Sequence record: MZ170040.1
Source: Escherichia phage vB_EcoM_FJ1
DNA length: 64,000 bases
Reading direction: 5' to 3' (one strand)
Shown: in pieces, positions 5,405 through 40,821 of the stretch
How positions within the stretch are numbered: position 1 is the stretch's first letter
Layout of the letters: each line of letters opens with the position of its first letter
Position numbers and translations under genes: made by a program
Notes under the pieces: generated by a model
Databases searched by the model: none
What the model was told of the DNA's origin: nothing
What the model saw: only the letters and a program-made list of their open reading frames with translations

Positions 5405-6984
5405 GTAATAATACATATCAACACGTTTCTAATGAATCTCGTTATGTAAAATTTGATCCAACTGGTACAAATTTTCCGGAAGAGATTACTGATGTTCAGG
5501 CTGCTATAGCAGCCATTTCTCCTGCTGGCGTAAATGGAGTTCCTGATGCATCGTCAACAACAAAGGGAATTTTATTTCTTGCCACTGAACAGGAAGTTAT
5601 AGATGGAACTAATAATACCAAAGCAGTTACACCGGCAACGTTGGCAACAAGATTATCATATCCAAATGCTACCGAAGAAGTTTATGGACTTACACGTTAT
5701 TCAACAGACGATGAAGCTGTAGCTGGTGTTAATAATGAATCATCTATAACTCCGGCTAAATTTACTACAGCAATTAATCACATTTTTGATACACGAATTT
5801 CTTCTGAAAGTTCACTTGGTGTTATTAAGTTATCATCTCTACCGCAAGCATTAGCTGGTGCAGATGATACTACTGCAATGACTCCATTAAAAACACAGCA
5901 GTTAGCTATTAAATTAATTGCGCAAATTGCTCCTTCTGAAACTGCAGCTACCGAATCGGCCCAAGGCGTTGTTCAATTAGCAACAGTAGCGCAAGTTCGT
6001 CAAGGAACTTTAAGAGAAGGCTATGCAATTTCTCCTTATACGTTTATGAATTCATCCGCTACTGAAGAATATAAAGGCGTAATTAAATTAGGAACACAAT
6101 CAGAAGTTAACTCGAATAATGCTTCTGTTGCGGTTACTGGCGCAACTCTTAATGGTCGTGGTTCTACAACGTCAATGAGAGGAGTTGTTAGATTAACAAC
6201 AACGGCCGGTTCACAAAGCGGAGGCGATGCTTCATCAGCACTAGCTTGGAATGCTGACGTTATCCACCAAAGAGGCGGTCAAACTATCAATGGAACACTT
6301 CGCATTAATAACACGCTCACGATAGCTTCAGGCGGAGCAAATATTACCGGTACAGTTAACATGACCGGTGGTTATATTCAAGGTAAGCGTGTCGTAACAC
6401 AAAATGAAATTGATAGAACTATTCCTGTCGGAGCTATTATGATGTGGGCTGCTGATAGTCTTCCTAGTGATGCTTGGCGTTTTTGCCACGGTGGAACTGT
6501 TTCAGCGTCAGATTGTCCATTATATGCTTCTAGAATTGGAACAAGATACGGTGGAAGCTCATCAAATCCTGGATTGCCTGACATGCGTGGTCTTTTTGTT
6601 CGTGGCTCTGGTCGTGGCTCTCACTTAACGAATCCAAATGTTAATGGTAATGACCAATTTGGTAAGCCTAGATTAGGTGTAGGTTGTACCGGTGGATATG
6701 TCGGTGAAGTACAAAAACAGCAGATGTCTTATCATAAACATGCTGGCGGATTTGGTGAATGGGATGATTCTGGGGCATTCGGTAATACCCGTAGATCAAA
6801 TTTTGTTGGTACACGTAAAGGACTTGACTGGGATAACCGTTCATACTTCACCAATGATGGATATGAAATTGACCCAGCATCACAACGAAATTCCAGATAT
6901 ACATTAAATCGTCCTGAATTAATTGGAAATGAAACACGTCCATGGAACATTTCTTTAAACTACATAATTAAGGTAAAAGAATGA
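5401..6984 (+). CDS. 12: short tail fibre protein gp12
   Basis: 527 aa, length and synteny match T4 gp12. Confidence 0.9.
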
Positions 6985-8444
6985 CAGATATTGTACTGAA
7001 TGACTTACCATTCGTTGACGGCCCTCCTGCAGAGGGCCAGAGCCGCATTTCCTGGATTAAAAACGGCGAAGAAATATTAGGAGCTGACACACAATATGGA
7101 AGTGAAGGTTCAATGAATAGACCTACAGTTTCTGTACTAAGAAATGTTGAAGTTCTTGATAAAAACATTGGAATACTTAAAACATCTTTAGAAACCGCAA
7201 ATAGTGATATTAAAACCATCCAGGGCATCTTAGATGTATCTGGTGATATAGAAGCTTTAGCACAAATAAGTATCAATAAAAAGGATATTTCTGACCTCAA
7301 AACGCTAACCAGTGAACATACAGAAATATTAAATGGAACTAATAGTACAGTTGACAACATTCTTGCTGATATTGGTCCATTTAACTCCGAGGCCAACTCT
7401 GTATACAGAACGATCAGAAATGATTTACTGTGGATAAAGCGTGAACTTGGACAATACACAGGTCAAGATATTAATGGTCTTCCTGTTGTAGGAAATCCTA
7501 GCACAGGAATGAAGCATCGCATCATTAATAATACTGATGTCATCACTTCACAGGGAATACGTTTAAGCGAATTAGAAACAAAATTCATTGAATCTGATGT
7601 AGGTTCTTTAACTATTGAAGTTGGTAATCTTCGCGAAGAGCTTGGACCGAAACCACCGTCATTTTCACAAAACATCTACAGTCGTTTAAATGAAATTGAC
7701 ACTAAACAGACAACATTCGAATCTGACATTAGTGCTATTAAGACCTCAATAGGATATCCAGGAAATAATTCGATTATCACGAGTGTTAATACAAACACTG
7801 ATAATATTGCATCTATTAATTTAGAGCTAAATCAAAGTGGAGGTATTAAACAGCGTTTAACAGTTATTGAAACTTCTATTGGCTCAGATGATATTCCTTC
7901 GAGTATTAAAGGTCAAATCAAAGATAATACAACTTCAATCGAATCTCTGAATGGAATCGTCGGTGAAAACACTTCATCTGGTTTAAGAGCGAATGTTTCA
8001 TGGTTAAACCAAATTGTTGGAACTGATTCTAGCGGTGGACAACCTTCTCCTCCTGGGTCTCTTTTAAACCGAGTTTCTACAATTGAAACTTCTGTTTCAG
8101 GCTTGAATAATGATGTTCAAAACCTACAAGTAGAGATTGGTAATAACAGCACAGGAATTAAAGGGCAAGTTGTAGCGTTAAATACTTTAGTAAATGGAAC
8201 TAATCCAAACGGTTCAACAGTCGAAGAACGTGGATTAACCAATTCAATAAAAGCTAACGAAACTAACATTGCATCAGTTACACAAGAAGTGAATACAGCT
8301 AAAGGCAATATATCTTCTTTACAAGGCGATGTTCAAGCTCTCCAAGAAGCCGGTTATATTCCTGAAGCGCCAAGAGATGGGCAAGCTTACGTTCGTAAAG
8401 ACGGCGAATGGGTATTGCTTTCTACCTTTTTATCACCAGCATAA
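6981..8444 (+). CDS. wac: fibritin (whisker antigen control)
   Basis: 487 aa, length and position between genes 12 and 13 match T4 fibritin. Confidence 0.9.
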
Positions 8445-37750: not shown

Positions 37751-37780
37751 GGGGACCTTTCGGTCCCCATATTTTTATTT
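37751..37780. terminator. bidirectional terminator between gene 54 (+) and minus-strand ORF
   Basis: GGGGACC-TTTC-GGTCCCC followed by ATATTTTTATTT. Confidence 0.65.
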
Positions 37781-38065
37781 ACGGAATGAAATGAAAGCAG
37801 AAACTGAAGCAACTAAACTGTCTTCAATATAAACTTCAATTTTTACCGGAGCTTCTGACTCAAATTTACCTGTTACTACACCCTGAAAAATACTTTCAGT
37901 CTGTTCTGGCTTTGAAAAATTTTCAGAAGGAAAAATTCCGAACTTTTTATCTGTTCCAAAAATTTTAATAAATTCATCGTAAACCGCTTCGTTAAAAGCA
38001 TTATCAGCAGGAATAACGCCTTCAACTACAAGTTCTTGACCTAAAAAGCGTAAAGAAGATTTCAT
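37775..38065 (-). CDS. hypothetical protein (T4 alt.-3 position)
   Basis: 96 aa ATG ORF preceded by GAGGA; driven by the repeated early promoter cassette. Confidence 0.65.
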   Translation of the reverse strand: MKSSLRFLGQELVVEGVIPADNAFNEAVYDEFIKIFGTDKKFGIFPSENFSKPEQTESIFQGVVTGKFESEAPVKIEVYIEDSLVASVSAFISFRK

Positions 38066-38072
38066 TTTGTGT

Positions 38073-38126
38073 TCCTCATGTTATGTCAGTAAGACTACTA
38101 TAACACAACACGAGGGACTTGTAAAC
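38073..38126 (-). repeat. 54-bp early-promoter cassette copy A (PeSL-like), identical to 52347-52400
   Basis: Exact 54/54 match; minus strand reads GTTTAC-N17-TTATAG...ACATAACATGAGGA (-35, -10, leader, SD). Confidence 0.8.
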
Positions 38127-38483
38127 TACATTTTGAACTTTTTAGTACGCGTAATAGGCATGCGTCGATTTTATACTGTTTCATTGTTTGAAGAGCAGTA
38201 TCAAAAACAGCATTAATGACGCCAATTGGATTTCCACCCAAGTTTTTAAGTTTAACTAATGATAGTTTCTCATTAACACCTATCATTACGATATGCATCA
38301 TTTTGTCGCCTGGTTTAACGTTTTATCTGTATCACCGCCAGAGGTGTATGTACAAAATCTAAATCCAGGAAGCACGCTTTCTTCGCCGGCTTGAATAGCA
38401 AAAATTTGTGGTATTTTATGCTTAGGATTTAAGTTAACAACCGGCGCCGAAGCGCCGTCAAATAATTATGTAATAAGTTCCAT
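38098..38483 (-). pseudogene. decayed tandem partial copy of the alt 5' region (Alt N-terminal paralog fragment)
   Basis: Starts ATGGAACTTATTACATAA 3 nt after alt stop (MELIT then in-frame TAA); continues with LFDG...NLNPKHKIPQIF...FCTYTSGGDT and, after a frameshift, MMHIV...KQYKIDACLLRVLKS, all homologous to Alt residues 1-120. Confidence 0.7.
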
Positions 38484-38486
38484 GAT

Positions 38487-40580
38487 TTATCCTTGAACGA
38501 ACTTGTAAGGCATGTTTGCAATATCTATGCAAGACGCAATAATTCCAAGAGATGATTCTACTTTCTGTTTAACATTTGATGAAACAAATGATGCAAAGTC
38601 AACTCTGTCTTCTATTTCAATATCACCTGTCATTGCAACCAATTCACCAGTTTCCATTAAATGGTCTCCATCATAGATTACCGATTCGGTGAGCTCTTCC
38701 GTGGTCATAACTTCAGCTTGAATGAGTTTTGTATTATTAGATGTTGTTCCGTCATTATTAGAAGCATCAGTTATTTTATTAACTTTGACCATCAATCCAC
38801 GCGGTAGAATAACTTCAGCTTCTGTTGCTATTCCGAGACTTCCTGGATATACAACATTAACTTTATGAGCTCCATCAATTGCCCATCCTATTTGAACTTT
38901 AACGTATTCAGGATTTTCTTTATACGCTCTTATTTCGTTTGGATTAATAGTTATTCCTTCTTCATTTTTATCAACTGTTAATTCATTGCGAGCTTCTGGT
39001 TCTAAAAGACCAATACCAGCATGTGTAATTCCAAAACGTCCAAAAATGATAGGAGTTAAAGAAGTAGATACAAAATTTCTGAAATAGAATACTTTATTTT
39101 TAACTAGTGCTTCGTATATAGGAGCAGTCATACTTTGAGCACGATAAACTGTAATGCCTTCTGGTATACGATCACCATTTTCAAAAGCAGAATCTAAATT
39201 AGTTATAGCAGCTTCAATTTCTTTTTCACTCATTACTTCATAACGTTCTGGATCATAACGACCCAAAAGAAGATTATTGATGTCAGTATATCCTGAACCG
39301 CAATACTCTCTAATGCCACGCTTTTGTGATGGAGTATATTTAGAACCATCACGGGCAATAGTAATATCAATCATTGGACCTGCACCAATTCCAGAGAAAC
39401 TATAAATCATTCTTTTGAGGAATTTAGTTTTTGTCGCGTTCCAGGAATTTTTAGTTATTTCTTCCCAGACTTCATCTGGCTGTCCTTTACGGGTTTTATT
39501 ATGTTTATCAAGCCAAGTATCTTTATATTCTTCAAATAATTGATTAACAGCTGCTGCGTATTTCTCTAAACATTTTATTGAAGTAGTCGGTTCATTTTTA
39601 ATCGCATTAAGAATTACATCTTTAATTTTTTCAGAAACTTCATTAACCTCACTTTTTGAAAAGAATTTATAGTCATAATGAAGTTCATCTGCAGTTCCTT
39701 CGGCAATGATTTTTGCTGCCTTAGTTTTAGAAGCTAATGAATTAATTCCAATTTTCATTTCTTCTGCTTCGGGAATTAAAGGTGCAGTAGCTGGTTTATT
39801 AAAATTAGCTGCTGTAGATTCATACTTCTGGAATAATTCACTTTCAAATCTAGAAGACTCTAATGATTGACTTTGTGCAATTGCTCTACGGGAAATTTTA
39901 ACTTTAACGATTACAGCTTGATCAGAACGTTTATCATTTTCTTGTGCAATAGATGCTGCAATTGCCTCATTTTTAGTTACTTGAGCTCCGGTATCTTTAT
40001 TGATATAAACATCACCGACCTTCGATTCAACTTTAGTAAAGAGCTCGGTACTAATTTCCGGAACTCCTGGAATGTCTTCTAGTGATACATTTTTGCGATG
40101 TATAAGAATATATGCATACTTTTTATCATAATCCCAGAGTTCCTTAAGAAGGACGTATCTGCCACCTGAACGACTACGGATAAGTCTATCAACAATAACT
40201 TGAATTTGTCGAGCTTGACCAGCAGTTTTAGACTTAAGAATACGGAGCATACAGGCATCAATTTTATACTGACGCATTGTTTGCATTGCAACAGTAAAAA
40301 CCGAATTGATATAATTAATTGGGCTTGGACCAAGACCTTTCAATTTAGCAATTGAACCTTTAGCGGTTAATGTAAAAGGAACAATATGCATCATTTTATC
40401 GCCCATCTTTAAATCACGATTAGTATCACCTCCAGATGTATAGGTACATAAACGAAAGCCTGGTTGTTCAATTGCATCATCAACATGAACTGAAAAAATT
40501 TGTGGTATTTTCTTCTTTGGATTTAAGTTTGTAATCGGAAGAGTAGTATCTTCGTCAAATAATTCTGTAATTAGTTCCAT
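38487..40580 (-). CDS. alt: ADP-ribosyltransferase Alt (virion-packaged, modifies host RNA polymerase)
   Basis: 697 aa from second ATG (MELITELF; track gives 698 from first ATG); sequence recognised as T4 Alt. Confidence 0.9.
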   Translation of the reverse strand: MELITELFDEDTTLPITNLNPKKKIPQIFSVHVDDAIEQPGFRLCTYTSGGDTNRDLKMGDKMMHIVPFTLTAKGSIAKLKGLGPSPINYINSVFTVAMQTMRQYKIDACMLRILKSKTAGQARQIQVIVDRLIRSRSGGRYVLLKELWDYDKKYAYILIHRKNVSLEDIPGVPEISTELFTKVESKVGDVYINKDTGAQVTKNEAIAASIAQENDKRSDQAVIVKVKISRRAIAQSQSLESSRFESELFQKYESTAANFNKPATAPLIPEAEEMKIGINSLASKTKAAKIIAEGTADELHYDYKFFSKSEVNEVSEKIKDVILNAIKNEPTTSIKCLEKYAAAVNQLFEEYKDTWLDKHNKTRKGQPDEVWEEITKNSWNATKTKFLKRMIYSFSGIGAGPMIDITIARDGSKYTPSQKRGIREYCGSGYTDINNLLLGRYDPERYEVMSEKEIEAAITNLDSAFENGDRIPEGITVYRAQSMTAPIYEALVKNKVFYFRNFVSTSLTPIIFGRFGITHAGIGLLEPEARNELTVDKNEEGITINPNEIRAYKENPEYVKVQIGWAIDGAHKVNVVYPGSLGIATEAEVILPRGLMVKVNKITDASNNDGTTSNNTKLIQAEVMTTEELTESVIYDGDHLMETGELVAMTGDIEIEDRVDFASFVSSNVKQKVESSLGIIASCIDIANMPYKFVQG

Positions 40581-40603
40581 CATATCCTCTCTAGTGTTTA
40601 TTC

Positions 40604-40611
40604 TATTTATA
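40604..40611 (-). promoter_or_regulatory. late promoter TATAAATA (minus strand) for alt
   Basis: TATTTATA on + strand, about 20 nt upstream of alt ATG. Confidence 0.6.
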
Positions 40612-40632
40612 AAATTAAAGGCCCGAAGGCCT

Positions 40633-40821
40633 TTAGTAATCTAGTGGTAAGAGAGTACGATATATTTCAAACTTTGGTCCTTTTTCATAGGCATCAAATG
40701 TTTCTGTAAATTTATTATAAGCGTATGCATCTACAAATTCGAGAATGACTTGTGATACAGAAGTAGAAACATCTCCACCTTCTTTTTGAGCAATGACAAT
40801 TGTTTCTAAGTAAGCTTTCAT
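40633..40821 (-). CDS. hypothetical 62-aa protein between gene 30 and alt
   Basis: ATG ORF overlapping gene 30 stop; followed by hairpin AAAGGCC-CGAA-GGCCTTT at 40617-40634. Confidence 0.5.
   Translation of the reverse strand: MKAYLETIVIAQKEGGDVSTSVSQVILEFVDAYAYNKFTETFDAYEKGPKFEIYRTLLPLDY

Follow-up and report, generated by a model that had tools for sequence, protein, structure and literature searches.

The sequence between alt and alt.-3 in Escherichia phage vB_EcoM_FJ1 is very likely what remains of the 5' end of a second, tandem Alt-type ADP-ribosyltransferase gene

We examined the region directly downstream of alt in a 64,000-nucleotide stretch of Escherichia phage vB_EcoM_FJ1 (MZ170040.1), referred to here as the window. 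The window is from a Tequatrovirus, and its genes follow the order of the T4T record (ligase, alt.1, alt, remnant, alt.-3, 54, 48). The remnant sits between the alt stop codon and the early promoter of alt.-3, on the same strand as alt. Over 1 kb around it, the window was 99.4% identical to vB_EcoM_Lutter and 97.2% identical to T4; the remnant region itself was 97.9% identical to T4 across all 389 nt, and T4 and its relatives overall gave 97 to 99%. T4T annotates the equivalent stretch as alt.-1 (61 aa) and alt.-2 (67 aa), and the remnant is the counterpart of that locus. The features of the region are as follows.

37775..38065, minus strand: alt.-3, the intact downstream neighbour, 96 aa, DUF5498 (PF17602, E = 5.4e-64)
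38073..38126, minus strand: early-promoter cassette, with -35 GTTTAC, a 17-nt spacer with TG, -10 TATAGT, leader, and the GAGGA ribosome-binding site (RBS) of alt.-3
38126..38136, minus strand: last 11 nt of the paralogue 3' end (TCAAAATGTAG), with the original stop codon TAG, now out of frame
38137..38145, minus strand: deletion junction, a single surviving copy of the 9-bp repeat CTAAAAAGT
38098..38301, minus strand: alt.-2-type open reading frame (ORF) of 67 aa, made up of paralogue residues 62-116 (MMHIV...RVLKS) and an 11-aa out-of-frame tail (SKCSLQVPRVV + L)
38137..38483, minus strand: 5' remnant of a second Alt paralogue, codons 1 to ~116, equal to T4 alt.-1 plus the Alt-homologous part of alt.-2
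38321..38324, minus strand: A4 run with the frameshift, one A lost
38442..38457, minus strand: predicted stem-loop CGGCGC-UUCG-GCGCCG, six G-C pairs and a UUCG tetraloop, in paralogue codons 9-14
38466..38483, minus strand: mini-ORF of five codons (MELIT) plus a stop at 38468-38466, GAA>TAA at paralogue codon 6, where Alt has GAA
38481..38494, minus strand: RBS and start codon of the former second paralogue (AAGGAtaaatcATG), overlapping the last alt codons and stop
38487..40580, minus strand: resident alt, encoding the Alt ADP-ribosyltransferase, 697 aa when counted from MELITE (in the ORF list it begins at the preceding ATG, at 40583)

The resident Alt carries the ADPrib_exo_Tox domain (Pfam PF03496, E = 1.9e-36) and matches phrog_802 (E = 1.7e-272). 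Upstream of alt, the terminator scan called a terminator-like hairpin (40616-40635, minus strand; AAAGGCCTTCGGGCCTTT and then a T-rich tail). After this hairpin comes TATAAATA (~40600-40612, minus strand), which we take to be the T4 late-promoter consensus; a late promoter there would agree with Alt, a packaged protein, being expressed late, along with any sequence immediately after alt. At the other end of the region, C-terminal extensions of Alt.-3 in T4 lead to escape from the CmdTAC defence by blocking CmdA degradation (PMC11618068).

The string ATG GAA CTT ATT ACA TAA, which the sequence-only reading had placed three nucleotides past the alt stop codon on the minus strand, lies at 38483-38466, separated from the alt TAA (38489-38487) by the spacer ATC. 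Homology to the alt 5' end spans 38483 to ~38137, so the claim that recognisable Alt N-terminal coding sequence persists here holds, and the quoted peptide strings (NLNPKHKIPQIF, FRFCTYTSGGDT, MMHIV, and KQYKIDACLLRVLKS) were all found. In pairwise alignment the remnant and the alt 5' end shared 227/335 nt (67.8%), a similarity far beyond chance (global alignment score, 101; 500 shuffles gave a mean of 2.7, a standard deviation of 1.45, and a maximum of 9). Once the stop codon and the frameshift were repaired, 69/113 aa (61%) were identical to the resident Alt. The copy had also been said to end inside a repeated promoter cassette. The cassette is indeed repeated, but the Alt-type homology stops short of it, at the junction at 38145-38137, ~11 to 20 nt upstream of the cassette (38126-38073). 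At the opposite end, AAGGA precedes the remnant start codon within the last alt codons, and the same RBS and start sequence also precedes an intact 685-aa paralogue in T2 and wV7.

This 685-aa ORF lies between alt and alt.-3 in T2 and wV7. Among the ~490 matching Tequatrovirus records, ~400 aligned to the first 350 nt of the region only and have a long Alt-like gene annotated there. The 685-aa paralogue contains an ADPrib_exo_Tox domain (Pfam, E = 8.4e-20) and keeps the R / STS / ExE motifs as YR.Q (YR..Q), FVSTSL, and SEAEVILPRG. Its identity to Alt is 41% over the full length, with residues 1 to ~235 much better conserved; a literature search found no function for it. The more distant Citrobacter phage Ursula likewise carries both copies in full and in tandem, and the duplication of alt must therefore be old. 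The remnant matched the 5' end of the T2 paralogue at 323/338 nt (95.6%), compared with the 67.8% for the resident alt. Thus, the remnant derives from the 685-aa paralogue rather than from the resident alt, and most of its apparent decay relative to alt is ancient paralogue divergence. The actual lesions are three: a deletion, a single -1 frameshift, and a single nonsense codon. The '3 places' per record at which the region matched were the 5' ends of the paralogue and of alt plus a separate promoter-side piece, and not a third copy of alt.

The remnant aligned to the T2 locus (L004) in three blocks, and T2 positions 6343-8041 (1,699 bp) were missing from the window. Both T2 breakpoints carry the 9-bp direct repeat (L004 ~6334-6342 and ~8033-8041), 1,699 bp apart. 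Lost with these bases were the central region and the entire catalytic domain of the paralogue, and codon ~116 became fused out of frame to its last 11 nt, which directly adjoin the -35 element of the alt.-3 promoter (the T2 right-hand junction reads ...TCTAAAAAGTTCAAAATGTAGTTTAC). An identical junction was present in 89 phage records and, by an exact junction search in IMG/VR, in 2 contigs. The direct repeats at the junction and the existence of full tandem copies in distant phages contradict the opposite course, in which an insertion would have turned a short ancestral ORF into the 685-aa gene.

A frameshift had been reported in the remnant, and we found exactly one, in the A run at 38324-38321. 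The run is A5 in T2, wV7, N2, SYGD1, AV119, and fPS-2, and A4 in the window and in T4; the -1 shift splits the remnant into the alt.-1-type and alt.-2-type frames. The TAA at codon 6 is an extra lesion at the same locus. T4 is without the GAA>TAA change and keeps the 61-aa alt.-1 ORF, which is absent as an open frame from the window. An exact 60-mer containing the codon-6 TAA was found in 44 of 486 phage records.

We compared 19 deletion alleles (17 GenBank records and 2 IMG/VR contigs), which carry the following combinations of lesions.

Deletion alone, with an uninterrupted 128-aa ORF: N2, SYGD1
Deletion and TAA: AV119, fPS-2, PTE-Eco15
Deletion and frameshift: T4T, VEc20, two IMG/VR contigs
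Deletion, TAA, and frameshift: this window, Lutter, JEP6, pSe_SNUABM_01, SP21535, ACG-C40, F26
Deletion, TAA, frameshift, and a 7-bp duplication inside the 67-aa ORF: HY03
Deletion, TAA, frameshift, and a second -1 deletion inside the 67-aa ORF: IME537, CE1

TAA and frameshift occur in all four possible combinations, and therefore there has been either recombination among alleles or recurrent mutation. Across the 19 alleles, at least four independent inactivating events lie on top of the deletion, in both halves of the remnant. Very few substitutions separate the deletion alleles from one another; most of their polymorphisms also occur in full-length alleles and may have been imported by recombination. 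The pattern is as expected for a pseudogene and fits neutral decay, with no sign of special protection for the 67-aa ORF.

Given the homology, the three lesions, the allele series, and the lack of an ADP-ribosyltransferase (ART) domain, we consider it very likely that the region is what is left, without function, of the 5' part of a second Alt-type ADP-ribosyltransferase gene in tandem with alt, at the same locus as T4 alt.-1/alt.-2. The ancestral order would have been alt, the 685-aa paralogue, and alt.-3, as is still present in most Tequatroviruses, with the paralogue starting 3 nt past the alt stop and its RBS embedded in the end of alt. One lineage would then have lost the 1,699 bp between the 9-bp repeats, probably when replication slipped or through illegitimate recombination mediated by microhomology; in T4, both slippage and illegitimate recombination classically give rise to deletions between short direct repeats. 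The 128-aa stump left behind would have decayed through loss of an A from the A5 run and GAA>TAA at codon 6, and in other phages through the 7-bp duplication or the second -1 deletion. In the window, ribosomes starting at the old paralogue ATG would stop after five codons. What follows most likely goes untranslated in this phage, as RNA that forms the 3' end of the alt transcript and lies upstream of the alt.-3 early promoter.

The 67-aa ORF (peptide MMHIVMIGVNEK...VLKSSK) ends with a TAG inside the -10 hexamer of the alt.-3 promoter, and only its out-of-frame tail and stop codon lie in the cassette. It matched phrog_15247 over its full length (positions 1-67 of 67, E = 8.8e-50). Matches to phrog_802 were N-terminal only, at positions 64-120 for the 67-aa ORF (E = 8.2e-20) and positions 2-120 for the 128-aa form (E = 5.5e-51). 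The PHROG search also gave a hit to phrog_23015. PHROG 15247 and 23015 appear to be families of the same pseudogene fragments, and membership in phrog_15247 is therefore uninformative on function. A Pfam search found no domain in either the 67-aa or the 128-aa ORF, and no catalytic ART domain with the R / S-T-S / E-x-E motifs; that domain lies inside the deleted 1,699 bp. The labels 'RNA polymerase-ADP-ribosyltransferase' and 'NAD(+)--arginine ADP-ribosyltransferase' that one or the other ORF bears in the JEP6, SP21535, F26, and SYGD1 records are thus misleading.

The alt.-3 promoter next to the remnant has the features predicted for a T4-type early promoter (sigma-70 dependent): the promoter scan returned TTTACA, 17 nt, and TATAGT, with 10/12 matches plus TG, and the Lutter record has a promoter annotated at the equivalent place. 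The 54-bp cassette from the -35 element to the RBS (GTTTACAAGTCCCTCGTGTTGTGTTATAGTAGTCTTACTGACATAACATGAGGA) is repeated exactly at 38126-38073 and 52400-52347, both on the minus strand. The second copy lies between an ORF like RNA ligase 1 (gene 63) and an alc-like ORF, upstream of the latter. Because the T2 copy of the cassette before alt.-3 differs at several positions, the two copies in the window may have been homogenised by gene conversion. Separately, a 48-nt stretch near the end of the Staphylococcus phage SAJK-IND record (MG010123.1, 31849-31896) matched the T4-type cassette/junction at 97.9%, which is probably contamination or a chimeric assembly.

We weighed other explanations against that of a non-functional remnant. 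The 67-aa ORF, or its 128-aa form, could be a functional N-terminal fragment of Alt that, for example, binds a partner of Alt or else competes with or modulates the loading of Alt into capsids. The N-terminal region of Alt is a genuine domain conserved across ~1,200 Straboviridae records, the ORF has its own PHROG family, albeit one consisting of these same fragments, and in N2 and SYGD1 the 128-aa ORF is still uninterrupted and has a good RBS, so a stable N-terminal fragment could be made in some phages. The 67-aa ORF is also intact in 16 of the 19 deletion alleles and its amino acid sequence barely varies, but this says little on selection, because the alleles are only 1 to 4% diverged and can exchange sequence with functional full-length alleles. 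Independent frameshifts destroy the ORF in HY03, IME537, and CE1. The region is transcribed in T4, where a time-resolved transcriptome and proteome (PMC9697503, Table S2) classed the alt.-1 and alt.-2 transcripts as 'middle'; however, the Alt.-1 and Alt.-2 proteins were undetected in that time course (Class_P = NA; PMC9697503, Table S2), while Alt.-3 (early) and several proteins of 43 to 65 aa were detected (PMC9697503). Nondetection of a small protein in a T4 data set rather than in this phage is weak evidence. Further, the ORF starts mid-domain, its out-of-frame tail reads into a promoter, and only a weak AGG lies upstream of its ATG. In T4, the ATGA stop-start coupling from alt.-1 to alt.-2 is a possible route to translation, but in the window this route is closed by the codon-6 stop, because ribosomes stop after five codons, ~165 nt upstream. 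The sequence-only reading had allowed that the region might still yield a 67-aa fragment; the ORF exists at 38098-38301, but a product from it is disfavoured, and we give a functional protein only a very slight chance.

That reading had also described the remnant as a partial tandem duplication of alt. A non-functional alt-like copy in tandem with alt stands, but a recent duplication of the 5' end of the resident alt, followed by many substitutions and a frameshift, has next to no chance of being correct. The tandem position, the shared MELIT N-terminus, and the clear homology would all agree with it, but such an origin is effectively ruled out by the much closer match to the T2 and wV7 paralogue than to alt (95.6% versus 67.8%). 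The survival of the paralogue's last 11 nt and stop codon downstream of the junction, the position of that junction on a 9-bp repeat seen at both T2 breakpoints, and the full gene carried by most relatives count against it as well. Another possibility, compatible with a pseudogene, is that the remnant is kept for signals acting in cis, with the hairpin as a 3' stabiliser or weak terminator of the alt mRNA or with the remnant as context for the alt.-3 promoter. A very stable, all-GC UUCG hairpin lies 27 nt after the alt stop and is the same in every Tequatrovirus allele examined, those with an intact and those with a truncated paralogue alike; the promoter cassette was untouched by the deletion, and the remnant survived in ~89 records rather than being fully deleted. 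However, the hairpin was ancestrally coding, its invariance may reflect only recent common ancestry, and it is absent from the diverged paralogue of Ursula. The hairpin lacks a T tract after it and was not called as an intrinsic terminator in the terminator scan, the 76-nt segment that contains it had a folding z-score of only -1.3, and Rfam gave no family match inside the region at E <= 1. A role of the predicted hairpin in the 3' stability of the alt mRNA is no more than possible, and we regard retention for cis signals as unlikely. The broader proposition that the stump is not neutral, either because the 67-aa (128-aa) product tunes or interferes with Alt packaging or partner binding or because the CUUCGG hairpin is a functional 3' element of the alt mRNA, has in our view a slight chance. 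If it were true, the repeated inactivations (the TAA, two -1 frameshifts, and the +7-bp duplication) would represent selection against a dominant-negative fragment and not drift.

As a non-functional remnant, the region can be compared with several known loci. It is like T4 alt.-1/alt.-2 (ADJ39920.1 and ADJ39919.1; UniProt P39495 and P39494) in position, 1,699-bp junction, A-run -1 frameshift, and 67-aa alt.-2 ORF, but in the window, as in Lutter, JEP6, ACG-C40, and others, the codon-6 TAA cuts the 61-aa alt.-1 to five codons, with loss of the ATGA coupling. With the full-length paralogue (T2 AYD82791.1, labelled alt.-1; in RB14 labelled alt.-2; wV7) it shares the first ~342 nt at 95.6% identity, the start context 3 nt past the alt stop, and a 3' end adjoining the alt.-3 promoter; unlike that gene, with its intact ADPrib_exo_Tox domain, it is without the 1,699 bp that include the whole catalytic domain. 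Yersinia phage fPS-2 g192c ('similar to N-terminal of RNA polymerase-ADP-ribosyltransferase Alt') has the same junction and codon-6 TAA but not the A-run frameshift, and its annotated ORF is 92 aa.

Two other phages have different products at alt. The single alt of ECML-134 (YP_009102669.1; NC_025449.1, L016 3501-5561) is chimeric, with residues 1 to ~150 being 98 to 100% identical to Alt and residues ~150 to 685 being 96 to 100% identical to the T2 paralogue. Like the remnant, it is a rearrangement product of the same tandem-paralogue locus, but it is one intact gene with no remnant and arose by a different event; its sequence suggests that the tandem paralogues underwent an unequal crossover, which would make it a third architecture of the locus. 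RB49p183 ('similar to C-terminal part of T4 Alt protein'; NC_005066.1, L015 5552-6376) is likewise an alt-related ORF of reduced length that immediately follows alt in a T4-like phage, and it is grouped with T4 alt.-1 and alt.-2 by Nolan et al. 2006 (PMC1524935). In contrast to the remnant, it keeps the C-terminal catalytic part (275 aa) and may be functional.

It is important to note that the core of this finding has already been described. The retrieved part of the T4T record (HM137666) states that alt.-1 and alt.-2 'together reflect a deletion and further frame shift in the second copy of gene alt', T4 alt.-1 and alt.-2 are included by Nolan et al. 2006 (PMC1524935) among paralogous duplications of adjacent genes, and the fPS-2 GenBank record labels its own copy 'putative pseudogene'. 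The locus in the window is thus the known T4 alt.-1/alt.-2 remnant with one extra nonsense mutation, common to the Lutter-type lineage. Since alt.-1/alt.-2 as a remnant of a second alt was in the T4 record and in Nolan et al. 2006, there is little new biology in the remnant as such. For annotation, the 67-aa ORF should not carry an ADP-ribosyltransferase label. For the phages, T4 and vB_EcoM_FJ1 are without a second Alt-type enzyme that most Tequatroviruses have kept and that is presumably also packaged in the capsid, which matters when results on T4 Alt are extended to T2-like phages. The locus is a clear case of tandem-paralogue turnover, represented by intact pairs, by a microhomology deletion with stepwise decay after it, and, in ECML-134, by what looks like an unequal-crossover chimera.
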